Under the pieces are notes generated by a model. It was not told the origin of the DNA. It ran no database searches and saw only the letters and a program-made list of their open reading frames with translations. Positions 28,275 to 48,065 of a stretch of DNA of 50,843 nucleotides are shown here, one piece after another; the first letter of the stretch is position 1, and each line of letters starts with the position of its first letter. Where the stretch lies: positions 1 through 50,843 of the forward strand of contig JBCNUW010000014.1 of assembly GCA_039630575.1 (NCBI GenBank). The letters are read 5' to 3'. Source of the DNA: Candidatus Hydrothermales bacterium. Lineage in GTDB: Bacteria > Hydrothermota > Hydrothermia > Hydrothermales > JAJRUZ01. Both the position numbers and the translations under genes were made by a program.

Positions 28275-28285
28275 GGTTCAATTCC
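28275..28285 (+). repeat. GGTTCAATTCC T-loop-like motif, copy 1
   Basis: Exact 11-mer, 25 nt before GTG 28311. Confidence 0.7.
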
Positions 28286-28310
28286 TTTCCATATTTAAAA
28301 GGAGAATTCT

Positions 28311-29147
28311 GTGGTTAAACTTTTTATCCTCTTTCTCGTTTTTTTGAATCTTTTTAACTGTAAAAAAGCCGAGGAAAAAAAAGTAGTGGGCACACCAATC
28401 GCAAAAGTTGGTAATGTGTATATCACTCAGGAAGATCTTGAAAAAGGTTTACCGCAGTTTGCATATCAGCTTATGGGAGAGGAGCAGAGAAAGGAGTTTT
28501 TACAATATGTTATAGATCTTGTTATTTTTTCACTTGCAGCAGAAAGGGAAGGTATAGATAAAGAAAATATTATCAAGGAGAGGCTCATTTGGGCTAAAAG
28601 ATTAGTTCTTTCTGACGAATACTTTAGAAGAAAAACCCAAAACATAATAGTTACACAAAGTGTTATTGATTCCTTTTATAAGGCTCATGAGAATGATTTT
28701 TTAAAAGAAATAGAATTTGTTTACTTTTTTGTCAATACTTTAAAAGATGCTCAAGATATAAGGGAGATCCTAAAAAAGAGTCCATTTACTCCTAAGTTAG
28801 TTGAGGAGATTGTAACAAAATATAATGCTATAGGAGATGTTACAAGCATCAACAGCGGATATCTCCATCTTGAAATGCTCCCGACTTTTCCAAGAGAGAT
28901 TGCTAAGGCTCTTTTAAACTTATCTATTGGATATGTCTCAGAGGTAATATCTGTTCAAAACCCACCTGGTTTTGCTGTTGTTAAAATATTAAGTTCATCA
29001 CCAACCAAACTTGTAAAAAGAGATATACTTAACGAAATAGGTCAGTATTTACAGTTGACAAAGGTTATGAAAGCTAAAGATTCTATAAGAGAGGAACTTA
29101 AGAAAATTTTCCCTGTTGAAGTTTATACAAAGTTAGGAACCAAATAG
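28311..29147 (+). CDS. PrsA/SurA-like foldase lipoprotein (degenerate parvulin domain)
   Basis: Lipobox-like LFNC; IAKVGNVYITQEDL; IDSFYKAH..F; SEVISV..GFAVVK; SD AAGGAG before GTG. Confidence 0.7.
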   Translation: MVKLFILFLVFLNLFNCKKAEEKKVVGTPIAKVGNVYITQEDLEKGLPQFAYQLMGEEQRKEFLQYVIDLVIFSLAAEREGIDKENIIKERLIWAKRLVLSDEYFRRKTQNIIVTQSVIDSFYKAHENDFLKEIEFVYFFVNTLKDAQDIREILKKSPFTPKLVEEIVTKYNAIGDVTSINSGYLHLEMLPTFPREIAKALLNLSIGYVSEVISVQNPPGFAVVKILSSSPTKLVKRDILNEIGQYLQLTKVMKAKDSIREELKKIFPVEVYTKLGTK

Positions 29148-29157
29148 GTTCAATTCC
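29147..29157 (+). repeat. GGTTCAATTCC T-loop-like motif, copy 2
   Basis: TAGG-TTCAATT-CCTA hairpin (4-bp stem), 23 nt before ATG 29181. Confidence 0.7.
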
Positions 29158-29180
29158 TAAAAGGAAATAAAATAATAAAA

Positions 29181-30026
29181 ATGAAAGTAGGAATCTGTGG
29201 TGCAGGTACAATGGGTAATGGTATTGCCCATGTTTTTTCATTAAATGGTTATGAAGTTATTTTGCAAGATCTTTCTATGGAAATTCTTGATAGAGCAGTT
29301 GACACAATAAAATCAAATATGGATAGACAAATTAAAAAGGGAATAATAGATGAAAATGCCAAAAATGAAGCCCTTAAGAGAATTAAGAAAACTGTTTCCC
29401 TTGATGATCTTCATGATAGTGATCTTATAGTTGAGGCAGTCTTTGAAAATGTAGATGTAAAAAAAGAACTTTTCCAAAAACTTGATAAAATAGTTAAAAA
29501 AGAATCAATTTTTGCTTCAAACACTTCCTCTATATCAATAACCCTTCTTTCTTCCTTTACTAAAAGAGAAGAGAAATTTATAGGAATGCACTTTTTTAAT
29601 CCTGTTCCTGTCATGAAACTTGTTGAAATTGTAAAGGGTTTAAAAACAGATGAAGAAACAGTAAAATTTGTCTATGAACTTGCAAAAAAACTTGGTAAAG
29701 AGCCTGTAATAGTTAATGATTATCCAGGATTTGTTTCAAATAGAGTTTTGATGCCAATGATAAATGAGGCAGTCTATGCACTTATGGAAGGAGTTGCGGG
29801 AAAAGAAGAAATTGATAGGGTTATGAAGTTAGGTATGAATCATCCGATGGGTCCACTTGAGCTTGCTGACCTTATAGGTCTTGATGTATGTTTAAATATT
29901 CTTGAAGTTTTATATAGAGATTTGGGTGATCCGAAATATAGACCTTGTCCACTTCTAAAGAAAATGGTTGAAGCTGGTTTTCTTGGAAGAAAGACTAAAA
30001 AAGGCTTTTATGAATACAAAACTTAA
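29181..30026 (+). CDS. hbd: 3-hydroxybutyryl-CoA dehydrogenase
   Basis: [39 protein letters not shown]. Confidence 0.95.
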
Positions 30027-30038
30027 AGGATTTTCCTG

Positions 30039-30676
30039 ATGGGAAAATAAGTTTTATAAAGTTAAGGAATTATCAATTAAAACTAGCTAAGAAAGTAAGG
30101 TTAGAAAAGGTAAATTTAGAGAGGATAAAACTTTATGGTGCCATTGATGTAGCTTATAGGGGAAAAAAGGCAAAGGGTGCCTTTGTTATTTATGATGATG
30201 AATTGAAAAAATTTATATATGAAGACTTTATAGAAAAAGAAGTTAAATTTCCTTATATTCCAACTTTTCTTTCTTTTAGAGAGATTCCGGTTTTAAAGGA
30301 GCTTTATAAAAGGGCAAAAGTAAAACCTGAAGTTTTATTTATTGATGGTCAAGGAATTCTTCATCCTGCCTTTTGTGGTATTGCTACCCATTTTGGTGTA
30401 CTATTTAATGTTATTACAGTTGGAATAGCGAAGAAAAAACTTGAAGGATTTTTAGAAAAAGAACCGGAAAATGAAATGGATTATGCACCTTTATATTTTA
30501 ATGGTAAAATTTGTGGGTACTGCTTAAGACTTTCAGAGGGTAAAAATTTTTTATGGATCTCTCCTGGAAACCTTATAACACCCGAAGATGCTCTTTTTGT
30601 TACCTTAAAATTTATAAAAAATGGTTCCCATATTCTAATGAAGAGGGCAGATGCTTTAACTAAAAAAGATTTTTAA
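30039..30676 (+). CDS. nfi: Endonuclease V; 5' end apparently requires a frameshift or non-canonical start
   Basis: FPYIPTFLSFRE, IDGQGILHP..CGIATH, GIAKK. The same frame upstream of 30203 encodes QLKLAKKV...YGAIDVAY (catalytic Asp) but has no ATG/GTG/TTG back to the stop at 30011-30013. Start coordinate is my best guess. Confidence 0.8.
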
Positions 30677-30700
30677 AAACTTTTATTTTATAATTTTTAT

Positions 30701-31096
30701 ATGGAAAGAACTCTTCTTGTTATAAAACCTGATGCAGTTGAAAGAAATCTTATAGGTAAGATTATATCAATGTGTGAGGAGAATGGTTTTAAAATTTTAA
30801 ATATAAAAATGGAGAAGATGACAAGAGAAAAAGCTGAAAGCTTTTATATAGCTCATAAACATAAACCCTTTTTTAAAAATCTCATTGAGTATATAACAGA
30901 AAAAGAAGTTGTTGCACTTATTTTAGAAGGTGAAAAGGCAATAGAAAGACTGAGGGAACTTGTGGGAGCTACTGATCCAAAAGAGGCAAGACCAGGGACA
31001 ATAAGATATATAATGGGAATTGATGTAACAAGGAATTCTGTTCATGCTTCAGATTCAAAGGAAAGTTTTGAGTTTGAGGTGAAGCACTTTTTTTAA
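30701..31096 (+). CDS. ndk: Nucleoside-diphosphate kinase
   Basis: ERTLLVIKPDA, GATDP..A.PGTIR, NSVHASDS. Confidence 0.96.
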   Translation: MERTLLVIKPDAVERNLIGKIISMCEENGFKILNIKMEKMTREKAESFYIAHKHKPFFKNLIEYITEKEVVALILEGEKAIERLRELVGATDPKEARPGTIRYIMGIDVTRNSVHASDSKESFEFEVKHFF

Positions 31097-32349
31097 TGCA
31101 TTTTTCTCAGATTTTTTTCCCAATATTAAAAAAAGAAATAGATGAAATTTTTAAATTCAAAAGGGTAAAAAATACTTTTTTAAAAGATAAAAAGATCTTT
31201 ATAATCTTTGAAAACAATTTAGCCTTAATGGTTTCACTACACCCAGAGATTTATTACTTTTTACCTACTGATGAACAGGTTGGTAAATTTGAAAAGGAAA
31301 AAGAATTTCCCTATATAAAAGATTTTTTATATAAAGATTCTGAAATTTTAGAGGGAGAGAGAGTTTTTTTTATAAATTTTATTAAAAAAAATCCCTTGGG
31401 AGAGATAGAAGAAAGAAAACTTGTTATTGATTTTACAAAAAGAGCAAGAGATCTTTTAATTTTAAAAGATAATAGAGTAATTTATTCCTTTAGAAAAAAG
31501 AAGGAGTTTAATCTCTCATTCTCTCAAAAACCTCATTTCTTTAAAGAACCCTTTGATGAGGAGTTTAAAGAGAAACTCATAAAAGACTTTAGTGGTTTCT
31601 TCTTTGTTGATAAAAATTTAAGGTTAACTCTTAAAAGATCTGATGATTCTGAATGTTTTGATAAATTATACAAGGCACTTTTGTACATATATAGACTTAT
31701 AGAAAAAAATATTGAAGAAAAAAAAAGTTTAAAAAAATTTAGTGTGAAAGATAACAATTTAAATAATATAAAGGTAGATCCTGAAATTTATAAAATTAAA
31801 GCAGAGGCAATCCTTATAAATTTAAAAGAGATAAAAGATAAAAAGGGATTAATTTTGCTAAAACATCCTGAAAAAGGCGAAATTGAAGTGGAAATAAAGC
31901 ACATCGAAACACCCCAAAAAGCAGCTGAGAGATATTTTAATAAATATAAAAAGTTAAAAAGAAAAGAAGAAATAGAAAAAGTTTTAGACAAAATTAAAGA
32001 AGAAAAAAGTTTACCTTATAAAGTTTACATTTCACCTTCTGGTTTTAAAGTTCTTGTATCTAAAAGTGTTGAAAAAGCAAACGAGCTTACCTTTAAATTA
32101 GCAAAACCATGGGATTATTTTTTTCATCTTAAGGAATTACCTTCAGCACATGTTATATTAAAAAGAGAAAAAAATCAGAAAATAAAGGAAGAAGATATAA
32201 GGTTTGCTGCAGAAGTTACAAAAAGGCATAGTAAGTTAAAGGAAAATGAAAAGGCTTTAGTTTTATATACATTAAGAAAGTATGTTAAACCAGTAAAGGG
32301 AAAAAAGGGAGCTGTAAAAGTTTTAAGGGAAAATGTTATTTTTCTGTGA
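31096..32349 (+). CDS. NFACT/RqcH (FbpA)-like protein with C-terminal NFACT-R (DUF814) domain
   Basis: AERYFNKYKKLKR, ANELTFKLA..WDYFFH....SAHVIL, YTLRKYVKP..G..GAV. Confidence 0.8.
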   Translation: MHFSQIFFPILKKEIDEIFKFKRVKNTFLKDKKIFIIFENNLALMVSLHPEIYYFLPTDEQVGKFEKEKEFPYIKDFLYKDSEILEGERVFFINFIKKNPLGEIEERKLVIDFTKRARDLLILKDNRVIYSFRKKKEFNLSFSQKPHFFKEPFDEEFKEKLIKDFSGFFFVDKNLRLTLKRSDDSECFDKLYKALLYIYRLIEKNIEEKKSLKKFSVKDNNLNNIKVDPEIYKIKAEAILINLKEIKDKKGLILLKHPEKGEIEVEIKHIETPQKAAERYFNKYKKLKRKEEIEKVLDKIKEEKSLPYKVYISPSGFKVLVSKSVEKANELTFKLAKPWDYFFHLKELPSAHVILKREKNQKIKEEDIRFAAEVTKRHSKLKENEKALVLYTLRKYVKPVKGKKGAVKVLRENVIFL

Positions 32350-32984
32350 TGAAATTTCTTATAATTTCTAAGAGTCTTTTTATATTTTTTAATTTAAAAA
32401 ATTTCTATGTAAAAGTTTTTCCTCCAGAAACACTTAAGCTAGAGGAATACATAAATTTTAAGGATGTAAAAAGTGACGGATTTTTTGTATACTTTTTAAC
32501 ACATAATAACAAGGTAGTTAAGGTTAATCCCTATAAGGGTATTCAAAAAAGTGAATTTACTCTAAATTCACTTACCTATGCAACTTTCTTTGATGTTACT
32601 GAAAGAAATAATTATTACTTTTATATATCCAAAGGGAGTATTCCTAAAGTTTTGAAAATTAAATTTTCTCCCTTTGATTCTTCATACTATTTTTTTGACA
32701 TAGATGAAAGAGTTTTAGATTTTTTTGTAATTGAGGACAGTTTTTTCATCTTTGTTTTTAAGGAAAAAATACATATATATAAAAAACTAAATCTCTTTAG
32801 AGAATTTAAAAAAAGTTATAAAAATTACTTTAAACTAAAGGATGAATTCTATGTATACTCTGGAGATACCCTCTTTTCATTAATTAAAAATATAAAAAAA
32901 GAATATAAGGGCAATTTTGAACTTTTATTTAAAACTGAAGGAAATGAAATAGTTTATAAAGATAATTTTTGGAGTTTAAGATGA
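32346..32984 (+). CDS. Hypothetical protein (beta-rich, possibly propeller-like)
   Basis: ORF overlaps both neighbours by 4 nt; no recognised motif. Confidence 0.55.
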   Translation: MMKFLIISKSLFIFFNLKNFYVKVFPPETLKLEEYINFKDVKSDGFFVYFLTHNNKVVKVNPYKGIQKSEFTLNSLTYATFFDVTERNNYYFYISKGSIPKVLKIKFSPFDSSYYFFDIDERVLDFFVIEDSFFIFVFKEKIHIYKKLNLFREFKKSYKNYFKLKDEFYVYSGDTLFSLIKNIKKEYKGNFELLFKTEGNEIVYKDNFWSLR

Positions 32985-35959
32985 TATTATTAACTATTTT
33001 TTTAGTCTCTGATACTAATCTTTATTATGAGTTTAAAAGAGAAATAATAACCTTTGAAAAACCCTTTGCTTTTCTTACATCTCCAATTTTAAATTCGATA
33101 ACTCTTTACAGAAAAAATGACACAGTTCCGTATACTCTGAAAGGTGACACCCTTTTCCCCCTTTTACCTGTGAGTTTAAATGATACCCTTTTTTTAGAAT
33201 ATAGGTCATTTTTTTATAGAAAAGACACAACAGTTTTAGAAGTGAAGTTTTTTTCAGAATTAAAGGAGGAAAGGGAGGAAAAATTAGTTAGAAAAAATGA
33301 AGTATCTGAAGGTGTTGAAATAAAAGGTGAGAAAACTTTTTCATTTTTATATTCAGATAAGGGCTTTAAAATTGACCAAAAAATAAGTTTTGAAGTTGAG
33401 GGTAAATTAACAGAGGATTACTTTATAAAGGGTAAAATTACTGATGAATCTTATCCGGAAGGTGAAAGTTTCACAAGGACTTTAAGTGAACTTGAAGAGG
33501 CAAGTATAAATCTTGAAGGATCAAACATAAAGGCAAGGATAGGGGAGTTTACTTTAAAATCAGGAATTAATGAAAAATTTAAAAAAGAACTTCTTGGACT
33601 TGAATTTAACTACATAGATGGGAAAAATTCTGTTGATTTTGTATTAGGTTATCCAAAGGGTGTATTTAGGACTTTTTATGTAGACCTTAAAGATGAGAAT
33701 TCAAATACCTTTTTAATTGTTGATCCTTTAAAGGAGAGAATTGTTCCAGGTTCTGAGAGGGTTTTTCTTGATGGTGTGCTTTTAAAAAGGGGAAGAGAGT
33801 TTGATTATATAGTTGATTATACAAATGGAACAATAACATTGACACAGAATGTCAGTTATTCTTTAAATTCAAAGTTAAGGGTTGATTTTGAGGTATTAAG
33901 GGAAGGCTATAGCAGTTATTTTCTATTTTCAGAGTATGGAAGGAAATTAAGGGGATTTGATTTAAATCTTATGTATTTAAATGAAAGTGATATACCTTCA
34001 ATGCCAAAGTTTTTTTTAACTGAAAGTGATAAAAATTTTTTAAAAAATTTATCAGATACATCTTGGATTTTGTTGAGTGGAATAAATTATGTTGATTCAG
34101 GTAAAGGAGATTATATTTTAAAAAATGATACTGTTTTTTATGTGGGAGAAAACAAGGGTAACATATCTCCGAGTTTTGTTTTTGTTGGTCCTTTGAAAGG
34201 TGATTATGATTATGTTGATGGTAAAAATTATTTTTTATTTGTCGGAAAGGATAGGGGTTCTTACAAATTAGGAAGGTGGGCAATTTTACCTCGAAGGAAT
34301 CAGAATTTAATTTTAAATTTAAATTTTAAAAAGGGGTCTGTTAAGTTTGATTACCTTTCTGGATTTTCATTTTTTTCACCGAACCTTTTTAAAAGGGATC
34401 TTATGGTAGGTTTTTTTAACGATTTTAAATTAAATTTGGAAAAAAACAGGTTAGGATTTGATATAAATTTTTTAAATAGAAGAGATTTTCGTTCGTTTTT
34501 TAGAATTTATGAAGAAAACTTTTTTTATTTTTGGGGTAAATCTGTAAAGGGAAACTTTTACGATTTCAGAATAAAACCTTACTTTAGGTTAAAGGAAAAT
34601 ACAAAATTTTATTACAGTTATGCTCTTTTAAAAGGAGAAGATTTTTTAATTAATAAAAATTCTTTTGGTTATTCTTTATTTTATAAATTTTTAAAGACAA
34701 CTGATTTTGAGTTTTTGAATATCAAAAAAAAAGATTTAAAAAGGTTTACCCTCTATGTTGAAAAACCACAGAAGGTTTCACCCTTTTACTCATATTTTTT
34801 TGAAATAGATACAATTAAAACAAAGAAAGTAAAGGAAGGAGGCGGGTTTAAAGTTAATTTAAAGAATTATAACTTTATTTACGAAATTATCTCTTTTAGA
34901 TTAAAGAGTGTAAGGGAGCTTAAGAATAATTTTAAGTTTAGCTTTATTTTTCCTAAATTGAATTTTAGATTTAATTCAAGTTTTGTTAATTTTAAAGATT
35001 CCTTAAGTAAAAGGAAAGATTTTAATTATTTTTTTGAATCAAATATATATCCCAAAAGTGGAGTATCTCTGTCATTTTTGTCTAGCCTGATGAGAAAAAA
35101 TGCTATAAGAAAGATTGTTGAGTATATAAAAGTTCCAGAGGGAAGGGGGACTTTTAGTTACGATTCAGTGAACAATACCTATTATCCTGATCCTGATGGT
35201 TCATTTATAAAGAGAGTTAGGGAGATTCCAGTTGGTTTTGGTCTTTTAAAAAATGAAAATGATCTTTCAACCTCCTTTAATTTTGATAAATTCTTTTATA
35301 GTAGTAATTTTTCTTTTAAATGGGAAAAGGGTGTTGAGTCAAAAAATTACCTCTATTTTACAAATTATCTAAATTTTTATCTATTTTTAAATCCCTTTTT
35401 AAATTCGGTTTATTTAAAAGAAATAAATAAACTATTTGACGGCTACTTTATGAACGGAGTTTTTGACATAATGATTGGTTTGAGAAGAAATTACAATAAA
35501 ATAATTTTAGAGTTATCTTTTGGTTACAAAAATGAAACCTTTGAAGAGTTAAATATCTTTTATAAAAAGATATCACCATATCTTATAATTTCTCCTCTTT
35601 TTGTTAACAGTAAAAGAAATTTAAAGTTAAATTTAAAATCAGGTTTATCAAACTTCTATTATTTAAAACCTATTGTTGAAAAAGCTAATTTGCCTTATAT
35701 GGAGTTTTCTTTTAATTATTCTTCTGAGTTTCTTTTTAAAACAAAAATTTATAATGATTTTTCACTTGTTTTGAAAAAATCTTATGATAAAAGTTTTTCT
35801 TCAAATTTTGAAAAGGATAAATGGAGATATATAAGTATTTTAAGGATTGAAAAGAATATAACAGCAAACACACTTTTTATTCTTAAAGGGGAATTTAGAA
35901 AAGGTTCCTTTTCAAAAGCCTTTTACAACATTTATCTCGAGACAAAACTTTTATTTTAA
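32981..35959 (+). CDS. Large hypothetical outer-membrane beta-barrel protein with SprA-like insert
   Basis: ATG 32981 overlaps the previous stop (ATGA); IVPGSERVFLDGVLLKRG..DYIVDYTNGTIT; long aromatic beta-strand region ending in F. Confidence 0.65.
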   Translation: MILLTIFLVSDTNLYYEFKREIITFEKPFAFLTSPILNSITLYRKNDTVPYTLKGDTLFPLLPVSLNDTLFLEYRSFFYRKDTTVLEVKFFSELKEEREEKLVRKNEVSEGVEIKGEKTFSFLYSDKGFKIDQKISFEVEGKLTEDYFIKGKITDESYPEGESFTRTLSELEEASINLEGSNIKARIGEFTLKSGINEKFKKELLGLEFNYIDGKNSVDFVLGYPKGVFRTFYVDLKDENSNTFLIVDPLKERIVPGSERVFLDGVLLKRGREFDYIVDYTNGTITLTQNVSYSLNSKLRVDFEVLREGYSSYFLFSEYGRKLRGFDLNLMYLNESDIPSMPKFFLTESDKNFLKNLSDTSWILLSGINYVDSGKGDYILKNDTVFYVGENKGNISPSFVFVGPLKGDYDYVDGKNYFLFVGKDRGSYKLGRWAILPRRNQNLILNLNFKKGSVKFDYLSGFSFFSPNLFKRDLMVGFFNDFKLNLEKNRLGFDINFLNRRDFRSFFRIYEENFFYFWGKSVKGNFYDFRIKPYFRLKENTKFYYSYALLKGEDFLINKNSFGYSLFYKFLKTTDFEFLNIKKKDLKRFTLYVEKPQKVSPFYSYFFEIDTIKTKKVKEGGGFKVNLKNYNFIYEIISFRLKSVRELKNNFKFSFIFPKLNFRFNSSFVNFKDSLSKRKDFNYFFESNIYPKSGVSLSFLSSLMRKNAIRKIVEYIKVPEGRGTFSYDSVNNTYYPDPDGSFIKRVREIPVGFGLLKNENDLSTSFNFDKFFYSSNFSFKWEKGVESKNYLYFTNYLNFYLFLNPFLNSVYLKEINKLFDGYFMNGVFDIMIGLRRNYNKIILELSFGYKNETFEELNIFYKKISPYLIISPLFVNSKRNLKLNLKSGLSNFYYLKPIVEKANLPYMEFSFNYSSEFLFKTKIYNDFSLVLKKSYDKSFSSNFEKDKWRYISILRIEKNITANTLFILKGEFRKGSFSKAFYNIYLETKLLF

Positions 35960-37455: not shown

Positions 37456-37460
37456 TTTTA

Positions 37461-38000: not shown

Positions 38001-39241
38001 TTATGAAAATATTTTTTAATCTCTTTTAATACATCGATGAACTTGTCAATTTCATCTTTTGTGTTATAAAGATAAAAACTAACTCTTGCAGAATTTTCTA
38101 TTCCAAAATGTCTCATAAGGGGTTGTGTACAGTGGTGTCCACTTCTTATAGCAATTCCCTCTTCATCACATATTCCAGCAATATCATGAGGATGAATTCC
38201 CTTTATGTTAAATGAAATTATACCTAATGTTTTTTCTGTTTTATGTCCGTAAATTTCAACACCCTCTATTTCCCTCATTTTTTTCAAAGCATAGTCTTTT
38301 AAATTTCTTTCATGTTCATGAACTTTTTCAATTCCTATTTCTTCAAGGTATGAAATAGCAGCCGCAAGGCCTATTCCTCCTGCAATGTTCGGGGTTCCTG
38401 CTTCATATTTCCATGGAAGAGTATTCCATGTTGCTCCCTCAGTTGTTACCTCAAATATCATGTCACCACCATAGAGAAAGGGTTCCATTTTTGAAAGAAA
38501 TTTTTTCTTTCCATACAAAAATCCTATACCTGTTGGTCCTAACATCTTATGTCCACTTACAGCAAGAAAGTCACAGTCTATTTCCTTTACATCAACTTTC
38601 ATATGTGGAACTGCTTGAGCTCCATCACATACTATTATTGCATCACTTTTTTCCCTCACAATTTTCACAATTTCTGAAGCAGGATTACATGTTCCAAGGA
38701 AATTTGAGGCAAGAGTAAAACTAACAATTTTTGTCCTTTTGTTTATTAGTTTTCTAAGATTATCTAAATCTAATGTTCCATCGTTTAAAACATTTACATA
38801 ATGAAGTTTTATTTTATTAAATCTTTTTAACATTTGCCAGGGAACTATATTTGAGTGATGTTCCATAATTGTTGTTATAACTTCATCATCTTCCTTAAGT
38901 TCTCTTAGTCCCAATGAATAAGCGACAAGATTCAGAGCCTCTGTCGCGTTTCTTGTGAAGATTATCTCTTCTATAGAATTTGAGCCAATGAATGAAGCAG
39001 CTTTTTTATGGGCTTCCTCATATTTAAGTGAGGCTTCGTAACTTAGTGTGTGAACTCCCCTGTGAACGTTTGCGTTGTAGCTACTATAAAATTCAACAAT
39101 AGCATCGATTACCTTTTTTGGTTTTTGAGTAGTCGCAGCATTATCAAAATATATAAGGTCTTTACCCCTTATTTTTCTCTTTAGACAGGGAAAATCTTCT
39201 CTTATTTTTGTTAAATTGAGGGTAATTTCCTCAGTTTTCAT
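37997..39241 (-). CDS. sufS: Cysteine desulfurase (SufS group II)
   Basis: YFDNAATTQKP, EHHSNIVPW, SGHKMLGPTG, EAGTP, RSGHHC; start reassigned to ATG 39241 (MKTEEI). Confidence 0.95.
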   Translation of the reverse strand: MKTEEITLNLTKIREDFPCLKRKIRGKDLIYFDNAATTQKPKKVIDAIVEFYSSYNANVHRGVHTLSYEASLKYEEAHKKAASFIGSNSIEEIIFTRNATEALNLVAYSLGLRELKEDDEVITTIMEHHSNIVPWQMLKRFNKIKLHYVNVLNDGTLDLDNLRKLINKRTKIVSFTLASNFLGTCNPASEIVKIVREKSDAIIVCDGAQAVPHMKVDVKEIDCDFLAVSGHKMLGPTGIGFLYGKKKFLSKMEPFLYGGDMIFEVTTEGATWNTLPWKYEAGTPNIAGGIGLAAAISYLEEIGIEKVHEHERNLKDYALKKMREIEGVEIYGHKTEKTLGIISFNIKGIHPHDIAGICDEEGIAIRSGHHCTQPLMRHFGIENSARVSFYLYNTKDEIDKFIDVLKEIKKYFHK

Positions 39242-39258
39242 AGTTTTAAAAAAAATGG

Positions 39259-39269
39259 GGAATTGAACC
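39259..39269 (-). repeat. GGTTCAATTCC T-loop-like motif, copy 3
   Basis: GGAATTGAACC on the + strand; 17 nt before the sufS ATG and 10 nt after a minus-strand TATAAT (39280-39285). Confidence 0.7.
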
Positions 39270-39299
39270 AATGATTTATATTATATTATAATTTTTTTT

Positions 39300-39770: not shown

Positions 39771-40178
39771 ATGAAAGTTAATCATATATCTGTAGCTGTT
39801 AAGGATTTTGATAGGGCTACTAAAATTTTTGAAAAGATATTTGAACTTGAACCAGAGATTCATTATTTTGAAGAAAGGAAACTAAAGATAGCAATTTTTC
39901 ATTTAGAGAATTTGATGTTTGAGATCATATCACCGTTAGAGGGGGAAGAGACTGTTTCAAAATTTCTTGAAAAAAGGGGGGATGGGATCCATCATATAGC
40001 ACTTGAAGTTGAGGATGTTGAAGAGAAAATCAAGTATTTTAAAGAAAATGGTTTTAATATAGTGGAAGATATAAGAAAAGGAATTAAGAGCAAAAAGGTT
40101 TTCTTCCTTGATCCTCGAGATACAGGTAGGGTTTTAATAGAAGTAGTTGAAGGGGAGTATCAACAGAAAGATAAATAG
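39771..40178 (+). CDS. mce: Methylmalonyl-CoA epimerase (VOC family)
   Basis: NHISVAV, EIISP, KFLEKRGDGIHHIALEV, VLIEVVE. Confidence 0.85.
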   Translation: MKVNHISVAVKDFDRATKIFEKIFELEPEIHYFEERKLKIAIFHLENLMFEIISPLEGEETVSKFLEKRGDGIHHIALEVEDVEEKIKYFKENGFNIVEDIRKGIKSKKVFFLDPRDTGRVLIEVVEGEYQQKDK

Positions 40179-40200
40179 TTTTTTTAAAAGTTAATTATTT

Positions 40201-41442
40201 TTAAGGTCCTAATTTTATTATAGTAAAGTTTTTAAGATAATCCTTTGCACATTTTTTAATTTCATCTGGCTTGATTTTAATCAATTCATTATATAGATTA
40301 TCGAAAAAGTTTTCGTTTCCTGTTAGTATGTAAGATTTTAGCATATTAAAGAGAGCAAGGTCTGTTGAGGAACTTTGTAAGAATCTCATAGTTTTAAGGA
40401 TGTTGAAGGTTTCTATAATTTCATCTTTTTTTACACTTATTTTTTTTACATCTTCAATTTCCTTTAAGATAAGTTTAAATGCAGAATCTGGTAATGAGGA
40501 TGAAACGTAAAAGTATCCGTAATTTTTTTTCTTTGAGGAAAGTCCAGCAAAAACAGAATAAGATAGCCCTGCTTTAGTTCTGATTTTTTCTTCAAATCTG
40601 TTTGATAGGATCTCTAAAAGTGCATAGAGTGCGGGATAATCGGAGTGTGTAACTTCTGGTGCAGGAAATTTACTTGCTAAATAGGTTGTTTTAAAGTCTT
40701 TTTCTATGATGTGAAAAAAGGTATCTTTAGGTAAAAATTCTTTTATTTCTATTTTTAAGTCCTCAGTTTTTTCAATTTTACCGAATTTTTCGTTAAATAA
40801 TTTGAAGATTTCGTCCTTTTCAATTGGTCCTATAAAGCCAATAACAATTTTTCCAGATTTAAAATTTCTGTTAAGAAATTCTCTTATATCCTCTATTTTA
40901 AATTTATTAATTGTTTCAACTTTTCCATCATGTTCTATTATGTAAGGATGGTTTCTATAAAATACGCTGTTAAGTAGTTTAAATAGTTTCTGGTCGGGAT
41001 CCTCTTCTTTTCTCTTTAGTTTTATAATTAAGCTTGTTTTTAAGGCATTTATTCTCTCAGGATTGAGTTCTGGTTCTGAAAAAATTTTAAATAGAATTTC
41101 TATAACTTCTTTATAATTTTTAGATGGAGATTTTAAAATTAAAAGGGAAAAGTCATGGTCAGTTATCACTTTACTATGTATTCCGTATTTTGTCATAATT
41201 TTGTGAAGTTGTGGATAGGGATTAGATTTGGTTCCTTCAAGTAAGGCGTTAAGGGAGAAATTTTCTATTCCATCCATTCCCTCCTTATACTTAGCTACAC
41301 CACCTTTAAAGAGAACTCCACAACTTATAACTTCTATACCCTCTGTTTTTTTATAGATAAGGGGTATATCGTTTTCAAGAAATAAAATTTCGGAAAAAAT
41401 TTTTGTAGATAAAAGTATGATTAAAAGATTTATTTTTTTCAT
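40201..41442 (-). CDS. M16 family peptidase, non-catalytic subunit
   Basis: M16 fold features (NHPY, RFEEKIRTKAGLSYSV) but no HxxEH. Confidence 0.85.
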   Translation of the reverse strand: MKKINLLIILLSTKIFSEILFLENDIPLIYKKTEGIEVISCGVLFKGGVAKYKEGMDGIENFSLNALLEGTKSNPYPQLHKIMTKYGIHSKVITDHDFSLLILKSPSKNYKEVIEILFKIFSEPELNPERINALKTSLIIKLKRKEEDPDQKLFKLLNSVFYRNHPYIIEHDGKVETINKFKIEDIREFLNRNFKSGKIVIGFIGPIEKDEIFKLFNEKFGKIEKTEDLKIEIKEFLPKDTFFHIIEKDFKTTYLASKFPAPEVTHSDYPALYALLEILSNRFEEKIRTKAGLSYSVFAGLSSKKKNYGYFYVSSSLPDSAFKLILKEIEDVKKISVKKDEIIETFNILKTMRFLQSSSTDLALFNMLKSYILTGNENFFDNLYNELIKIKPDEIKKCAKDYLKNFTIIKLGP

Positions 41443-41443
41443 T

Positions 41444-42715
41444 TTAATCCTCCTCTGGTTCGAGGATTCCCATTACATAGTTTTTGTTTTTTATATAATT
41501 TTTTAAAAATTCTTTGATATCTTCCTTGTTTAATTTTTTTATTTCATCTACATAGTTTTTAAAGTATTCAAAATCAGCGGAGGTTATCCAAAAGGAAAAT
41601 TCAAGTGCAAACCTTTGGGAGTTTTCTGTTTGTAGGTAAAAATCATTTTCGATGGATGTTTTTGCATCTTCAATAATTTCAGGAGGAAACCATTTTTCGT
41701 CGTCTATTGAGTTTAAAAAATAGTTGATTTTCTCCAGAGCCTCTTCAATTTTAGATTTTTCTAAGTCAAGATTAAGATAAATTTCTCCTGAAGCTTTTTT
41801 TGTATAGTAAGAAAAAGTTGCGCTTCCTGCTATTCCTGAGTTGACAAATTCTATCTGGAATGGAGAATAGGGAAGTGAAAACATTTTTCCAACAAGATCA
41901 GCAATATAAGTATCTTTTCTTTCATATAGAGTGGAAGGACCTCTAAATAGGAGCGTTATCCTTGAACTTTTTATATCCTTTGATTTTACTCTTAAAAATT
42001 TTTTTGTTTTAAGTTCAGGTAATTTTAAAGGTTTTTGGTAAGAGGTTTTCTTTTTCCATCTTTCAAAAATTTTTTTTGCAAGTTTTAAAGTTTCTTTAAA
42101 ATCAATATCTCCAGATATAATTAAGTTACAGTTTTCAGGTCCGTAGAATTTCTCATACTGTTTGATCATAATTTCTCTTTCAGCCTTTAAAATGTTGTGT
42201 TTTGGTCCTAAAAGATCGTCTCTATAAAATTCTTCTTCAAAAAATAGCTTTGAAAGATCTACATGAAAGTTCATCAGAGGGTCAGAATAGTCTCTGTTAT
42301 ATTCGTCTAAGACAACAGTTTTTTCTTTTTCAAGTTCTTTTTCATCAAAAAGGATCCCTGTTATTGCATGATAGGCAAATTCAAGTCCTTCTTTTAGTTT
42401 TTCTTTTGGTAAGGTATAAAAGTATACGACATAATTGTGTGAGGTGGCACCGTTGTAGAAAATTCCCAGCTCTCTTACCTTTTTCATGAATTCTTCTTGA
42501 GTTTTATATTTTTTATTTCCCTTAAAAAACATATGCTCAACAAGGTGAAATAGCCCTGCATCTTCAGGAGTTTGGTATTCTCCTCCAGCTTTGAAGGAAA
42601 GGACAACTGTTACTATAGGAGAGAGTCTATTCTTTATCATATAAAGGTTTAAATTGTTTTTAAGCTTTACATTTTCAATATTTAAATACCCAAAAAGGGA
42701 AATTAAAATAAGCAT
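41444..42715 (-). CDS. M16 family zinc peptidase, catalytic subunit
   Basis: GLFHLVEHMFFKG (HxxEH), NGATS, EKTVVLDE. Confidence 0.92.
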   Translation of the reverse strand: MLILISLFGYLNIENVKLKNNLNLYMIKNRLSPIVTVVLSFKAGGEYQTPEDAGLFHLVEHMFFKGNKKYKTQEEFMKKVRELGIFYNGATSHNYVVYFYTLPKEKLKEGLEFAYHAITGILFDEKELEKEKTVVLDEYNRDYSDPLMNFHVDLSKLFFEEEFYRDDLLGPKHNILKAEREIMIKQYEKFYGPENCNLIISGDIDFKETLKLAKKIFERWKKKTSYQKPLKLPELKTKKFLRVKSKDIKSSRITLLFRGPSTLYERKDTYIADLVGKMFSLPYSPFQIEFVNSGIAGSATFSYYTKKASGEIYLNLDLEKSKIEEALEKINYFLNSIDDEKWFPPEIIEDAKTSIENDFYLQTENSQRFALEFSFWITSADFEYFKNYVDEIKKLNKEDIKEFLKNYIKNKNYVMGILEPEED

Positions 42716-42736
42716 TTATTTTTAGTCCTTTTTTAG

Positions 42737-42747
42737 GGGTTTGAACC
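42737..42747 (-). repeat. GGTTCAAACCC T-loop-like motif, variant copy 4
   Basis: GGGTTTGAACC on the + strand; 21 nt before ATG 42715. Confidence 0.55.
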
Positions 42748-42792
42748 TTTTTTAAAGTTAAATTTTAAAAAAATTTTCTTATATAATTCTAA

Positions 42793-42821
42793 TTGACTTT
42801 AAAAAATTTTTACTTTAAGAT
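42793..42821 (+). promoter_or_regulatory. Sigma70-type promoter for the S8 peptidase operon
   Basis: TTGACT (42793-42798), 17 bp, TAAGAT (42816-42821). Confidence 0.65.
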
Positions 42822-42829
42822 TATGTTAA

Positions 42830-42840
42830 GGTTCAATTCC
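42830..42840 (+). repeat. GGTTCAATTCC T-loop-like motif, copy 5
   Basis: Exact 11-mer, 8 nt after the predicted -10 and 23 nt before ATG 42864. Confidence 0.7.
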
Positions 42841-42863
42841 AAATTTTTATAAAAATTTAAAAG

Positions 42864-45389
42864 ATGTTAAAACTACTAATATTTTTAGCTTTAAGTCAAG
42901 GTAAGGTTATAAAAAATGAAATAATTCTTTGGCTTAAAGACGATGTAAGGGAGTTTATACAATTTGAAAGGGGCACAAATACTCTTTCTTTTCCTGAGCT
43001 TGATTTTCTTTTTGAAGAATATAATGTTTATGAAATTGACAGACTTATCAAAGGAAAAATTCCTGAAGATGCAAAAAGGTTTGATCTTGATTTGATATTT
43101 CTTTTAAAAGTAAAAGATGAAGATAATGCAAAGAAGTTAAAGGAAATTCTTTCTACCTTGCCATATGTGAAATATGTTTTTAACAATGAAGCCTATCCAT
43201 TAAAGTTTATACCTAATGATCCTTATTTTTCACAGATGTGGAATTTAACTAAAATGAAAGTCCCGCAGGCATGGGATATTACACAAGGTGATCCAAAGGT
43301 TTGTGTTGGAGCTATTGATACAGGTTTATGGTGGGAACATGTTGATTTGAGAGAAAATTTATGGGTCAATCCTGGAGAAGATTTAAATTCAAATGGTCTT
43401 TTTGATTATCCCTATGATTTAAATGGTATAGATGATGATGGTAACGGTTATGTTGATGATGTAATTGGTTTTAATTTTAGTTATGGTATATGGGATCCTT
43501 CACCGCAGTCTTCTTTTGGTTCAGATCATGGAACGCATGTTACAGGTACTATGGCAGCTGTAACTAATAATGGTATAGGTGTATCTGGAATAGGTTTTAA
43601 AATAAGGACAGCTGGTTTAAACTGTCAGTTAATTTGGCAAGATACCTCTTATATTAATTTTTATGCTACTGTTGAGGCTCATTATTATGGAGCCAATATG
43701 GGTTTTTCTGTTTTAAATAACTCTTGGGGGGGTTATTTTTGGGAATTGGGGAGAATAAGAATGATGCAGGCAGCAGTTGATTATGCAAGGTCAAAGGGAG
43801 CTGTGGTTCTTGCTGCTGCTGGTAATGAAAGTGTTAATTTAAATGTTTTCCCAATGTATCCTGCGTGTTTAAAAGGAGTTATAGCAGTTGCTGCTTCTAC
43901 TCCAAGTGATATGAGAGCCATCTTTTCAAATTATGGTGATTCTGTTGATGTTGTTGCACCGGGTGTTTCCATATGGAGTACTGTTTTAAATAATGACTAT
44001 GATTCCTGGGATGGAACAAGTATGGCTTCACCTAATGCAGCTGGAGTCTGTGCTCTTATAAAATCCTATTTTCCCTCAATTTCACCCTTAGAGGTAGAAA
44101 GATACCTTGAAGGGGGGGCAGATAAAATAGACAGTTTAAATCCAGGTTACGTTGGTTTACTTGGTGCTGGTAGGGTTAATGCCTATATGTCTTTGATTTA
44201 TCCCTTTTATTCAGGTTTAAAGGTAATTGATTTTAGGATGTTTGAAATCCAGGGTGATGGAGACAATTTCTTTGAAGGAGGAGAGATAGTAGGTGTTTTC
44301 CCTTTAGTTAAAAACTTTGGGCCCCAAGCATCAGATTCTTTCAAAATAACTTTAAAAGGTTCCACCAATTTTCAGGTTATTGACAGTACTGTTTTTTATA
44401 GAAATGTTTTAAATGTTGAAAATAGCGTTTTAGTAAAGGTTGACACATTTAAAATTATTTTAAATAATGTGAAAGATAAAGATACTTTAAGGTTTAAAAT
44501 AGATGGTTTTCCCACTTCATTGTATAGTGAATCAAAGTTAAAATTTTTCATAGGCATTCCTGATGTGCTTGTTTACTATACAGATTCTTTGAATAATTTT
44601 TATAATTATTATGAAATAGCACTTGATTACCTGAATGTGAAATATGATATTTGGAGATCCCATCTTAGGGGTATTCCATCATTAACTTCTAATATGCCTC
44701 AACTTGTTATATGGGCAACTGGTAATGATTCAATAAACTGTTTGTTAGAAGAGGAGATTAATACATTTATGAGTTATTTAACTTTAGGGGGAAAACTTGC
44801 TTTAACATCTCAATTTGCAGCTGAAAATTTAAACTCTCCACTTGATACATTTTTCTTTAGAAATTATTTGGGTGTTGATAGGTTTAATATTCCCTTAGGT
44901 GGTGGTCAGGATAAGGCAAGGGGAGTTACAAATGATCCCTTAGCTCATGGTTGGTTTTTATTCCTTTCAAGTTCAGCAAGTGCGCAGAATACAATCTCTC
45001 CTGATGAAATTTTAAATGATACATTAAGCGGCACTATATGTATAAGGTATGGTCCTACAGGTGCTTTAAAGGGTGCTGCAGTGAGGACTCAAAATACAGT
45101 TTTCTTTGCTTTTCCTCTTGAGTCAGTTCCATATGAGGGCTCACCGAGCCTAACGAAACTTTATCAAGTAATTCATGGATTTTTCAGATACTTTAATGTT
45201 TCTGTTCAGGAAAAAGAGCCTTTTACAAAGCTTGTGGGAAAGGGAAATATATCGATTTTAATAAAAAATGGTGAGAATTTAAGGGGAGATCTTTTTACTC
45301 ATTCGGGTAGAAAGATTTTGAATCTTTCAAAGGGAATTTACTTTTTAAAGGATAATGAAAGAGTAGTTAAAATAATAAAAATAAAGTAG
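42864..45389 (+). CDS. Secreted S8 (subtilisin-like) serine peptidase with short T9SS-like tail
   Basis: Catalytic triad IDTG / HGTHVTG / GTSMASP; AAAGNE; NGIDDDGNGYVDD loop; tail SGRKILNLSKGIYFL..VVKIIKIK. Confidence 0.93.
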   Translation: MLKLLIFLALSQGKVIKNEIILWLKDDVREFIQFERGTNTLSFPELDFLFEEYNVYEIDRLIKGKIPEDAKRFDLDLIFLLKVKDEDNAKKLKEILSTLPYVKYVFNNEAYPLKFIPNDPYFSQMWNLTKMKVPQAWDITQGDPKVCVGAIDTGLWWEHVDLRENLWVNPGEDLNSNGLFDYPYDLNGIDDDGNGYVDDVIGFNFSYGIWDPSPQSSFGSDHGTHVTGTMAAVTNNGIGVSGIGFKIRTAGLNCQLIWQDTSYINFYATVEAHYYGANMGFSVLNNSWGGYFWELGRIRMMQAAVDYARSKGAVVLAAAGNESVNLNVFPMYPACLKGVIAVAASTPSDMRAIFSNYGDSVDVVAPGVSIWSTVLNNDYDSWDGTSMASPNAAGVCALIKSYFPSISPLEVERYLEGGADKIDSLNPGYVGLLGAGRVNAYMSLIYPFYSGLKVIDFRMFEIQGDGDNFFEGGEIVGVFPLVKNFGPQASDSFKITLKGSTNFQVIDSTVFYRNVLNVENSVLVKVDTFKIILNNVKDKDTLRFKIDGFPTSLYSESKLKFFIGIPDVLVYYTDSLNNFYNYYEIALDYLNVKYDIWRSHLRGIPSLTSNMPQLVIWATGNDSINCLLEEEINTFMSYLTLGGKLALTSQFAAENLNSPLDTFFFRNYLGVDRFNIPLGGGQDKARGVTNDPLAHGWFLFLSSSASAQNTISPDEILNDTLSGTICIRYGPTGALKGAAVRTQNTVFFAFPLESVPYEGSPSLTKLYQVIHGFFRYFNVSVQEKEPFTKLVGKGNISILIKNGENLRGDLFTHSGRKILNLSKGIYFLKDNERVVKIIKIK

Positions 45390-45399
45390 GAGGAGATCT

Positions 45400-48012
45400 A
45401 TGAGAATTTTTTTTATTTCTTTTATTATATTTTCTCTTTTAAAATCTGGTGAGATTTTACTTGTAGATCATGATGGAAACAAAACTCTTCAAGATGGAAC
45501 TCCTTATGACGCAATAATAAGGGCCTCTCTTTCAAGACTTGGTTATGTATATAGAGTTTGGGATCATCCTGATACATTAACCTGTCCTCCTCTTGATACA
45601 CTTTTAAACTATAAAGCTGTTATTTGGAATATTCCTTATGTAGAGTTTGAATTTAGACCAAAAGATGTTGATTCTGCTGTTATGTATCAATACCTTCATT
45701 CTGGAGGCAAGCTCTTTCTTATAAGCCCTGAATTTATAGATTGGATGTTTTATTTTTACATCATACCTGGTTTCCTTGGTGTTTCAAATTATGAAAATGC
45801 TTCTCTTGCTAATAAGTTAGCCTTTGGCGTTTCTGGTGCTCCCTATTTCAGTTCTTTCACATTTCAGTTTGATAATTTTTATAACAATCCGAGTTTAAAT
45901 TATTGGCAAAATATAATGGTTCTCTCCAGTTCTCAGCCCTTAATGAGGGTTAATTATCATCCCTATATGATTAGTGATAGCTGTATAATGCTTTTTAGAA
46001 AGTTTCCATTAGGCACAGATACAGGTAGACTTGTTCATCTTTCTGTTTCTTTTGAGAATATAATTCCTGAAGCAAAAAGAGATTCCATAGTAAGGAAAGT
46101 TATTGAGGGTCTTTTAAAATACCAAAGACCACAGTTTCCAGACCTTGCTATTTCATCAATAAAGGGTCATGAGATTATTTTTGATTCAATTTTACCTTTA
46201 AAAGGTGTTAATCAATATTTTAAATACAAGGTAAAGATAAAAAATTTAGGAAGTTTAAGTTCTTCTCTGGCAAGTATTACTTTGACTTTAAAGGACTTTC
46301 AGACTCAAAATATTTTCTTTTCTGATACAAAACAGGTTCCACCACTTGTCTCTTTTGATTCAACTTTAGTTGTTTTTGATTCCTTTACTTATATTGTTCC
46401 AAAGAAGTATATTTTTGAAGTGAGTATAAATTATCAAGATTTAAATAATTTAAATAATTTCTTTATAGATACTTTTAAGACTCTTTTTGTTGCTTTTTAT
46501 GACGATTTTGAGGATCAAAACAGAACCTTTTCAAAATGGGAGAGGGGTTTTGAGTTAACTTCTGAAAGATCTTATCGTGGTTTCCGCTCTTTTTGTGAAA
46601 AGGCTAATATGAATTATCCGAATATGGCTGATATAAGAACTCAGAATATTAACCCCATTTCTTTAAAGCAATTTAAAACGGCTCTTTTATCTTTTTATGT
46701 TTATTATAATATAGAACCAGGTTTTGACCATTGTTTTCTTGATATCTCAAGGGATAAGATTCATTATTACACATTAAAGAGTTTCACAGGTTTTCATCCA
46801 TTTTGGGAAAAAGTAGATGTTGATCTTTCCGGTTATACCCTTTATGATTCTGTTTATCTTAGATTTAGATTTAAATCAGACCCTGGTGCAAACTTTGAAG
46901 GAATTTTCATAGACGATTTAATTCTTATATGTGACACTCAAGATTTAGGTAAGCCCCTAATAATTCATAGAAAAAAACCTGATACTTTTAGCTTTTATAG
47001 ACCTACAAGTTTAGTTGCAGAGATATATGATAAAAGTGGTATCCAGAGTGCATATCTTAAATATTATACTGAAAATAATCCAAATGATACATTTTCCTTT
47101 CCTTATGATAGTTTTAAGTTAAAAAAATACTATTTTACATTACCTTTTGTTGGAACTGGTGAGAGAATTTATTACTTTTTTGAAGCATCTGATTCTAAAT
47201 TGAACAAATCTTATTCAAATGTTTTTGAAATTGTTCAAGGTAAAAAGTTTTATAACTTTCAGGAAACCCAGAATCCATCCCTTTATTTTGATCTTAACGG
47301 AACACCCTCTGTAAAAATAGGAGATATCTTGATGACAGGATTTGTTTGTAACTATGATTCGATAGAACTTAGATCAGTTATGTATATGACTTATTCTGAT
47401 GATTCAAATCCAATTGATACGATCTATATTTACCTTTTAAATAACTTTCCTGATACTACCCCACTTTTAAAATTTAAGGATTATCCTGAAAATACTTCAG
47501 AAAGAAGATTTTCCTGGAATCTATTTACTTTCCCTCAAAGTGTAAAATTTAGATTATCTGATACTTTCTTTATAGGATTAAAAAATTATAGAAACACAGA
47601 TGGTTACCCCTTTTTCCTTATTGAGGATATAATCCCTTCATCAAATATGAGTTTTATTTATAAAAGGGCAGAGGATGCAATTTATCCTCTTTCGGATGTG
47701 ATATCTGGACACAGAGCAGATCCACTTTTAATGGTCATAACAAAAGCATATGGAGCTCTATCAGAGATTGAAAAATTCTATGCAGGAGAGATTAAAGAAG
47801 GTATAAAATTCATAGGTGCCCTACCTTACTTTTTTATACCTGAACTGGAAAGGGAAAAGAGAATGACTATATTAGATTCTTCTGGTAGAAGAATAAGGGA
47901 GATAAGAGTTTTGCCAGGTAAAAGCCTTTTTATTTGCCTTGATCAAAGAAAAAGGGGAACCTATTTTCTTGTTGTAGATAAAAAGGTATATAAGTTTTTA
48001 ATATTTAAATAA
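45400..48012 (+). CDS. Large secreted multidomain protein (CARDB-like and immune-inhibitor-A/MAM-like modules, T9SS-like tail)
   Basis: PDLAISSI..VKIKNLGS; YNIEPGFD..W..VDLSGY..LRFRFKSD..GIFIDD; tail ILDSSGR..GTYFL..KFLIFK; SD GGAGG. Confidence 0.75.
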   Translation: MRIFFISFIIFSLLKSGEILLVDHDGNKTLQDGTPYDAIIRASLSRLGYVYRVWDHPDTLTCPPLDTLLNYKAVIWNIPYVEFEFRPKDVDSAVMYQYLHSGGKLFLISPEFIDWMFYFYIIPGFLGVSNYENASLANKLAFGVSGAPYFSSFTFQFDNFYNNPSLNYWQNIMVLSSSQPLMRVNYHPYMISDSCIMLFRKFPLGTDTGRLVHLSVSFENIIPEAKRDSIVRKVIEGLLKYQRPQFPDLAISSIKGHEIIFDSILPLKGVNQYFKYKVKIKNLGSLSSSLASITLTLKDFQTQNIFFSDTKQVPPLVSFDSTLVVFDSFTYIVPKKYIFEVSINYQDLNNLNNFFIDTFKTLFVAFYDDFEDQNRTFSKWERGFELTSERSYRGFRSFCEKANMNYPNMADIRTQNINPISLKQFKTALLSFYVYYNIEPGFDHCFLDISRDKIHYYTLKSFTGFHPFWEKVDVDLSGYTLYDSVYLRFRFKSDPGANFEGIFIDDLILICDTQDLGKPLIIHRKKPDTFSFYRPTSLVAEIYDKSGIQSAYLKYYTENNPNDTFSFPYDSFKLKKYYFTLPFVGTGERIYYFFEASDSKLNKSYSNVFEIVQGKKFYNFQETQNPSLYFDLNGTPSVKIGDILMTGFVCNYDSIELRSVMYMTYSDDSNPIDTIYIYLLNNFPDTTPLLKFKDYPENTSERRFSWNLFTFPQSVKFRLSDTFFIGLKNYRNTDGYPFFLIEDIIPSSNMSFIYKRAEDAIYPLSDVISGHRADPLLMVITKAYGALSEIEKFYAGEIKEGIKFIGALPYFFIPELEREKRMTILDSSGRRIREIRVLPGKSLFICLDQRKRGTYFLVVDKKVYKFLIFK

Positions 48013-48016
48013 AAAC

Positions 48017-48045
48017 TTGAAATTTATTTTAAATTAGGTTATTCT
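48017..48045 (+). promoter_or_regulatory. Sigma70-type promoter
   Basis: TTGAAA (48017-48022), 17 bp, TATTCT (48040-48045). Confidence 0.6.
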
Positions 48046-48054
48046 TTATGGATG

Positions 48055-48065
48055 GGTTCAAAGCC
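48055..48065 (+). repeat. GGTTCAAAGCC T-loop-like motif, variant copy 6
   Basis: 9 nt after the predicted -10 and 26 nt before ATG 48092. Confidence 0.5.

Follow-up and report, generated by a model that had tools for sequence, protein, structure and literature searches.

A T-arm-like hairpin upstream of start codons as a probable translation-initiation signal in one family of WOR-3 bacteria

Hairpin copies in the window and their distribution

The stretch of DNA analyzed here (the window) is the 50,843-nucleotide contig JBCNUW010000014.1 of a Candidatus Hydrothermales bacterium (assembly GCA_039630575.1), and it contains a short motif resembling the T-arm of tRNA that recurs in sense orientation shortly upstream of start codons. 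Its source genome (G000; 1.89 Mb, 30% G+C, WOR-3, with 46 tRNAs and a tmRNA) was compared with G005, a second genus of the family that carries the motif, and with G006, an outgroup genome from the sister family. The closest match to the HisS of the source genome (82%) is from a candidate division WOR-3 bacterium, and that to its TruB (93%) is from a Candidatus Hydrothermales bacterium. Gene calls were crude, being made without a gene finder, and carrier genes were identified by visual inspection of N-termini and gene order rather than by a family scan. Position numbers within the motif follow tRNA numbering.

The original prediction listed six copies, at 25, 23, 17, 23, 21 and 26 nt from start codons, and all were confirmed in position, strand and distance. 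The copy at 28275..28285 (+), GGTTCAATTCC with A-U as the third pair, lies 25 nt before the GTG at 28311 of a gene for a PpiC-type peptidyl-prolyl isomerase (PPIase) lipoprotein; its leader also has a Shine-Dalgarno (SD) site, AAGGAG at 28299-28304, and the G005 ortholog retains the hairpin at 26 nt. The copy at 29147..29157 (+), again GGTTCAATTCC with a third A-U pair, is operon-internal, its G1 being the final base of the upstream TAG stop codon, and it precedes the ATG at 29181 of a 3-hydroxybutyryl-CoA dehydrogenase gene by 23 nt. This leader has no SD and the G006 ortholog has a strong one (-11.1 kcal/mol; strong is used throughout for -8 kcal/mol or better), and in G005 the hairpin is retained at 22 nt. 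On the minus strand, GGTTCAATTCC at 39259..39269 stands 17 nt before the ATG at 39241 of a SufS-family cysteine desulfurase gene, and GGTTCAAACCC at 42737..42747 stands 21 nt before the ATG at 42715 of an M16 peptidase gene, which is among the 6 of 66 hairpin genes whose G006 ortholog has no strong SD. The remaining two are GGTTCAATTCC at 42830..42840 (+), 23 nt before the ATG at 42864 of an S8 subtilase gene, with a predicted -10 at 42816-42821, and GGTTCAAAGCC at 48055..48065 (+), 26 nt before the ATG at 48092 of a gene for a 190-aa protein without a Pfam match, with a predicted -10 at 48040-48045. A seventh copy, absent from the original list, was found at 12908..12918 (+), 25 nt before the methylmalonyl-CoA mutase ATG at 12944. 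This is a variant, GGTTAAACTCC, with A at position 56 and G-C as the third pair; in the G005 ortholog a canonical copy lies 22 nt before the start.

In 100 dinucleotide shuffles of the window the mean number of matches was 0.37 and none reached six. The window was also scanned for tRNA genes and Rfam families without a match, so that no cloverleaf surrounds the T-arm copies. Sigma70-like promoters, scored with untrained weights, were predicted before the copies at 28275, 42830 and 48055 (scores 9.0, 11.2 and 9.2; the -10 ends 11, 8 and 9 nt upstream), and the other three listed copies scored below 7.

The genome-wide enrichment in strand and start distance that the original prediction led one to expect was clear. 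GGTTCRANNCC has 170 matches in the source genome, 126 of them outside tRNAs and the tmRNA, and 88 of the 126 have a long-frame start 12-36 nt downstream on the same strand, compared with 10 of 126 in reverse orientation; seven scrambled control motifs were start-linked in 0-21% of cases. The pattern GGTTCNANNCC occurs in 163 non-tRNA copies where about 24 are expected: 123 are start-linked on the sense strand, 35 lie in genes and five are intergenic without a start. One member of the set of 123 is a tmRNA-like 3′ end, which is excluded from the set of 122 used below. Among the unlinked copies in genes, 11 are sense and 24 antisense, a hint that the motif is selected against on coding strands. 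With the looser GGTTNNANNCC, 145 of 295 matches were start-linked, a count that still includes an rpsH match in the conserved rpsN coding sequence that is probably false. Carriers, as named by eye, include rpsL, tuf, rplL, rpoA, rpsF, rpsO, rpsT, rpsU, rpmE, rpmF, rpmH, rpmI, rpsA, infC, efp, frr, rho, ftsZ, dnaK, groES and gapA. Within the rplK-rpoC and alpha clusters, rplL and rpoA are the only genes with the hairpin.

With a tRNA-excluding pattern, each of the six family genomes had 61-121 matches; the 266 other WOR-3 genomes had 0-12. Since the six carriers are kin, they represent one origin. A near-identical pattern was run on 101 genomes from each of two other phyla, those to which an Ignavibacteriales and a Minisyncoccia record belong, and gave 0-11 and 0-6 matches, respectively; matches on viral contigs (52 and 50, all single, with no contig name repeated as judged by eye) were uninformative. 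Five family-like copies were seen on contigs C25, C31 and C39 of G010, a sister-family bin 67% complete, and these contigs are possibly mis-binned. In the source genome, the T-loops of 13 tRNA genes themselves lie 21-28 nt upstream of a start codon, in most cases with no SD. Such T-loops are a possible origin of the hairpin; similar spacing is found in G006 as well.

Hairpin structure and position relative to start codons

From its sequence pattern, the motif reads as an RNA hairpin of 2-3 bp carrying a tRNA T-loop, R52 G53 U54 U55 C56 N57 A58 N59 Y60 C61 Y62. G53, U54, U55, A58 and C61 are fixed and the G53-C61 pair is invariant; single changes at 52, 53, 54, 55, 58, 61 or 62 leave 0-1 start-linked copies each, while position 57 is free (purine in 97 of 122 copies, pyrimidine in 25) and 56 partly free. 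A third pair, G-C, is present in most copies without C56. At position 60, 114 of 122 copies have a pyrimidine, which is U in 93. Versions with loops of 6, 8 and 9 nt were start-linked in 0 of 6, 0 of 26 and 0 of 24 cases.

The outer pair 52-62 covaries: A-U is start-linked in 5 of 58 occurrences (0.4 expected) and C-G in 1 of 4, and all 13 non-Watson-Crick combinations together give one start-linked copy. The next pair, 51-63, is Watson-Crick in 76 of 122 copies against 41.3 in shuffles (0 of 5000 shuffles), and four ortholog pairs between G000 and G005 show two-sided compensatory change there. No covariation or enrichment was detected beyond 51-63 in the 122 copies; 77 have stems of 2-3 bp and 20 have five contiguous pairs. 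By ViennaRNA the median probability of the closing pair is 0.82 at 37 °C and 0.09 at 70 °C, so that a cell living in the heat, as the habitat is taken to be, would need something to hold the hairpin folded.

With respect to neighbouring genes, 38 of the 122 copies are in divergent regions, 31 are separated from the upstream gene by over 25 nt, 52 overlap the end of that gene or lie within 25 nt of it, and one is at a contig edge. Promoter-like sites ending 6-14 nt upstream were found for 15 of 38 divergent, 9 of 31 long-spacer and 5 of 52 operon-internal copies (controls: 4, 3 and 2), and in the first two groups such a site never overlaps or follows the motif. Thus the location at mRNA 5′ ends, which had been proposed from three copies in the window, agrees with the promoter-like sites there, but the hairpin is not confined to 5′ ends: it is transcribed, lies near the 5′ end at operon heads and is also used within operons.

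Where start codons could be fixed by homology, the spacing was 17-24 nt in 42 of 47 SD-less genes and never below 17. In 15 genes with an SD it was 22-39 nt, longer than in the SD-less genes (p 8e-7), and the hairpin lies 5′ of the SD where both occur, with a gap of 7-23 nt. The hairpin is therefore tied to the start codon and not to the promoter. A separate feature of start regions in the source genome is a peak of TATAAT-like hexamers 5-6 nt before start codons, which suggests many leaderless mRNAs; by a loose test 112 of 626 anchored genes are leaderless candidates, and 71 in G006.

Exchange with Shine-Dalgarno sites and the proposed function

For the comparison with G006, 1.94 Mb of its 2.1 Mb was used and 639 ortholog pairs were anchored; 13 pairs in which the motif was a genuine upstream tRNA were removed before SD sites were counted. 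The G006 ortholog has a strong SD for 60 of 66 hairpin genes and for 167 of 560 others (odds ratio 23.5, p 1e-22). The difference was observed in divergent regions (16 of 19 hairpin genes against 27 of 116 others) and in tight operons (29 of 31 against 118 of 370), and the long-spacer subset also holds. In the source genome the SD was lost at 46 of the 60 hairpin genes, compared with 81 of the 167 genes without a hairpin, and the duplex energy to the 16S 3′ end is weaker than -4 kcal/mol in 47 of 66 anchored hairpin leaders. As 16S rRNA was not assembled in G000, the genes of G001, G004 and G005 were used instead.

Within the family, the comparison with G005 covered 778 kb and 306 ortholog pairs with a median identity of about 68%. 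The hairpin is shared in 37 pairs (the doubtful rpsH match among them), found only in G005 in eight and only in G000 in none, so that 37 of 37 were kept. The spacer sequences of shared hairpins are unrelated, their lengths are correlated (rho 0.6), and some single genes swap SD for hairpin. The element is real, conserved and family-wide, and its description as a lineage-specific, sense-oriented T-loop mimic acting at the RNA level in mRNA leaders is upheld.

Stabilization of mRNA, recruitment of a protein or ribosome, and modification had all been offered as functions. Among these options translation initiation stands out, since the hairpin is placed relative to the start codon and occupies leaders in which the outgroup has an SD. 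We consider it probable, from the comparison of genomes, that the hairpin is a translation-initiation signal that substitutes for the SD, acting in its place or on top of it. The folded hairpin would sit just outside the mRNA channel of the 30S subunit, which could explain the 17-nt floor, and the longer spacing in genes with an SD would arise because the SD helix must fit between. A stem so short would melt when hot, and a bound partner may for this reason keep it folded. The hairpin would then tether 30S subunits beside an A/U-rich, unstructured spacer and the AUG.

Several observations weigh against this function. The hairpin does not preclude SD use, as 14 of the 60 hairpin genes with a strong G006 SD keep both signals and the anti-SD is intact in three 16S genes of the family. 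Within the source genome the SD rate is alike, 23% of hairpin genes and 24% of others, in a set that includes the 13 tRNA cases. Loss of SD sites is general (strong SD in 19% of genes in G000 and 36% in G006), and of 227 genes whose G006 ortholog has a strong SD, 81 carry neither signal in G000. The SD comparison rests on one outgroup genome. Finally, genome compaction could narrow the spacing, and a stabilizing element would likewise favour highly expressed genes.

The last point leads to the alternative of a signal for RNA stability or processing, in which a T-loop bound by protein would mark or shield abundant mRNAs at their 5′ ends, whether primary or produced by cleavage, and the minimum of 17 nt would merely keep the landing site of the ribosome clear. 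We regard this as rather unlikely. A promoter-like site 6-14 nt upstream in 24 of 69 operon-head and long-spacer copies, against 7 at control distance, speaks for it, and the internal copies are at genes that need extra output (rplL, tuf, rpoA), which differential decay could also give. It leaves unexplained, however, the preferential loss of SD at hairpin genes, the swaps at single genes, and an upper spacing limit that is narrow only in SD-less genes. Moreover, neither RNase J nor RNase E/G was found over the cut-off in the five genomes searched (G000, G004, G005, G006 and G007; 93-96% complete). Such an RNA decay set-up is unusual in itself.

An action on DNA or on the transcription complex appears improbable. 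The motif would then be a transcription-factor site, as the original prediction had suggested as an alternative, or a promoter element, or a non-template hairpin similar to ops. In the RfaH model the ops hairpin loads a NusG-family factor and the ribosome is recruited through uS10. Such an action would fit the strand specificity of the 11-mer and the conservation of NusG (82% between the genera of the family against 52.5% to G006) and of uS10 (92.5% against 64%). It would also fit the family uS10 (L215:17930-18250, -), whose QF(W/F)(Y/F) contains an aromatic pair; the corresponding residues are QF(E/Q/V)L in 16 other WOR-3 sequences and QFEM in solved structures. Against these stand the covarying pairs and the exact T-arm grammar, the lack of a palindrome, and distances to promoters that are not fixed. 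Against an ops-like mechanism, G000 and G004 have a single NusG-family gene, and second copies occur in G005 but also in the outgroup G006. A further proposal, that TTGAAC on the opposite strand serves as a -35 for the opposite gene, was rejected: a -10 was found at 16-18 nt in 4 of 28 divergent and 1 of 62 same-strand cases, with no peak.

Candidate partners and comparison with known systems

As partner, our lead is TruB, which may bind the hairpin and perhaps form pseudouridine at the equivalent of U55; alternatively, the hairpin may dock directly on the platform of the 30S subunit. The motif matches the TRUB1/Pus4 consensus GUUCNANNC, including the preferences for G at -3 and a pyrimidine at +5 (PMC5340967), the latter being position 60. 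According to PMC6418473, TruB requires U54, U55, a pyrimidine at 56 and A58. In 6 of 6 family genomes the truB gene (L030 in G000; L029, L031, L032, L034 and L035) has an SD of -12 to -17 kcal/mol, compared with -2 to -11.6 in nine others, and is preceded by TAAGGAGGT within the end of rbfA. This runs against the general loss of SD in the family; a comparable gain of a strong SD was seen in 13 of 355 genes. TruB is single-copy, as is TrmI, and the catalytic Asp is retained. Its identity between the family genera is 84.7%, against 57-79% for IF2, TrmI, S15, RbfA, RibF and DUF503, and in a sister-family pair it is 74% against 58-81% for the same six controls; in conservation it ranks 3rd of 120 genes of like outgroup distance. 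The family TruB also has a short N-terminal and an acidic C-terminal extension and family-specific residues in the PUA domain.

The case for TruB is suggestive, a lead and not a result, and a number of points count against it. The 16S identity is 87.1% in the sister pair and 91.9% in the family pair; the sister pair being the more diverged, the apparent slowdown of TruB vanishes if 16S is taken as the clock. Eleven start-linked copies have no C56 (one of these is a coding false positive), and the 25 copies with a pyrimidine at 57 depart from the purine. According to PMC13492117, E. coli TruB binds short-stem substrates weakly, a stem of 5 bp is best and at least 2 bp is needed for TRUB1, and bacterial TruB has not been found to modify mRNA; no mRNA target of a bacterial TruB is known (PMC13492117, PMC11421799). 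A predicted complex of family TruB with family uS10 scored 0.00 against a mark of 0.32, which is no evidence either way.

Other readers were considered. TrmI, which the original prediction had named, is encoded in the window by a gene of the trmI family (GCD14; tRNA m1A58 methyltransferase) at 2796..3572 (-), and this gene is a bystander on present evidence. TrmI shows no family-specific change in copy number or rate, acts very slowly on microhelices (PMC6418473) and is not the best-fitting reader. U60 is favoured in the T-arm, and an acceptor stem or variable region helps; the hairpin has U60 in most copies but no acceptor stem. TrmFO, found in 4 of 5 genomes, depends on G53-C61 and U54U55C56 and does not need A58 (PMC6418473). 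Elsewhere in the window, positions 31096-32346 (+) encode an NFACT-family (RqcH-like) protein with weak Pfam matches. Ribosomal proteins S1, S2, S6, S7, S11, S18 and S21 and factors IF1 and IF3 showed no extra domain when compared with G006. Of 1658 crude gene calls in G000, 428 had no match in G006, and 116 of these were matched in the G005 DNA covered; by eye no clear RNA-binding candidate for a family-specific reader was seen among them, in a search that covered about 92% of G006 and a third of G005. In all three 16S rRNA sequences of the family (L019-L021), the helix-26 region (alignment columns about 860-890), which lies near the mRNA exit, differs from that of four sister-family sequences and has two extra bases.

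That the hairpin is first of all a modification target (m1A58 by TrmI, m5U54 by TrmFO or pseudouridine by TruB), whose regulatory role would be independent of ribosome recruitment, we judge very improbable. All three enzymes are encoded in G000 and the motif holds the TrmFO determinants and mostly the U60 of TrmI, but no TrmFO match over the cut-off was found in G004 (96% complete), which has 95 hairpin copies; TrmI is very slow on microhelices (PMC6418473); and a mark alone would leave the start-codon spacing and the exchange with SD unexplained. The remaining alternative, that the copies are degenerate REP-like repeats or remnants of mobile elements derived from tRNA, in keeping with the intergenic location and the identity to tRNA T-arms, is largely refuted, as no Y1/RAYT transposase (PF01797) was found in any of five genomes and the copies are single, sense-oriented, set in unrelated flanks and retained at orthologous genes in both genera even as the spacers changed.

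How bacteria select start sites is accounted for by SD pairing, by leaderless starts or by A/U-rich leaders without structure. A structured motif that took over SD genes across a whole family would, if true, be a new kind of signal, and the family offers a natural experiment in the loss of SD-dependence with the anti-SD intact. We put forward tentatively, from sequence comparison, a third genome-wide mode of bacterial initiation, in which a minimal T-arm in the leader might be read by a TruB repurposed and up-regulated as an initiation factor, which would bring the mRNA to the 30S subunit some 20 nt upstream of the AUG and possibly write pseudouridine. If TruB is the reader, a bacterial tRNA-modifying enzyme would act on mRNA by design, and synthetic biology would gain an orthogonal, possibly heat-stable part for ribosome recruitment. 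A cultured WOR-3 strain is reported in PMC12285271.

A literature search, with subscription journals and supplements outside its scope, found no description of the hairpin. Like an SD site it is a sense-strand leader signal at a bounded distance before starts, and it marks the genes that have an SD in the sister family. Unlike an SD site it is a hairpin with a covarying stem, does not pair with the anti-SD and lies further upstream, at 17-24 nt. With tRNA T-arms (48 of G000 were scored) it shares the 7-nt loop closed by G53-C61, the fixed U54, U55 and A58, R52-Y62 and the pyrimidine at 60, but it stands alone in mRNA, only 2-3 pairs are under selection, and 25 of 122 copies have a pyrimidine at position 57, compared with 1 of 48 in tRNAs. 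TRUB1/Pus4 sites in mRNA, which are GUUCNANNC hairpins (PMC5340967), have the same consensus, G at -3, pyrimidine at +5 and 7-nt loop. Those sites are eukaryotic and scattered and have 5-bp stems, whereas the sites described here are bacterial, positioned by the start codon and conserved. The T-loop-like m1A sites of TRMT6/61A are likewise eukaryotic and scattered, with 5-bp stems. Mimicry of tRNA that engages the translation machinery occurs in the thrS operator, in viral tRNA-like structures and in internal ribosome entry sites (IRESs), and initiation without an SD occurs in A/U-rich S1-dependent leaders, leaderless mRNA and RfaH/ops; each of these is single-gene, viral or larger, or has no structured motif. 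The hairpin resembles these systems in its mimicry of tRNA and, probably, in serving initiation without an SD; to our knowledge, none uses a T-arm of 11-13 nt at over a hundred genes of one genome. It probably works like an SD site and has the form of both a T-arm and a TRUB1 site, and it belongs to none of these classes.

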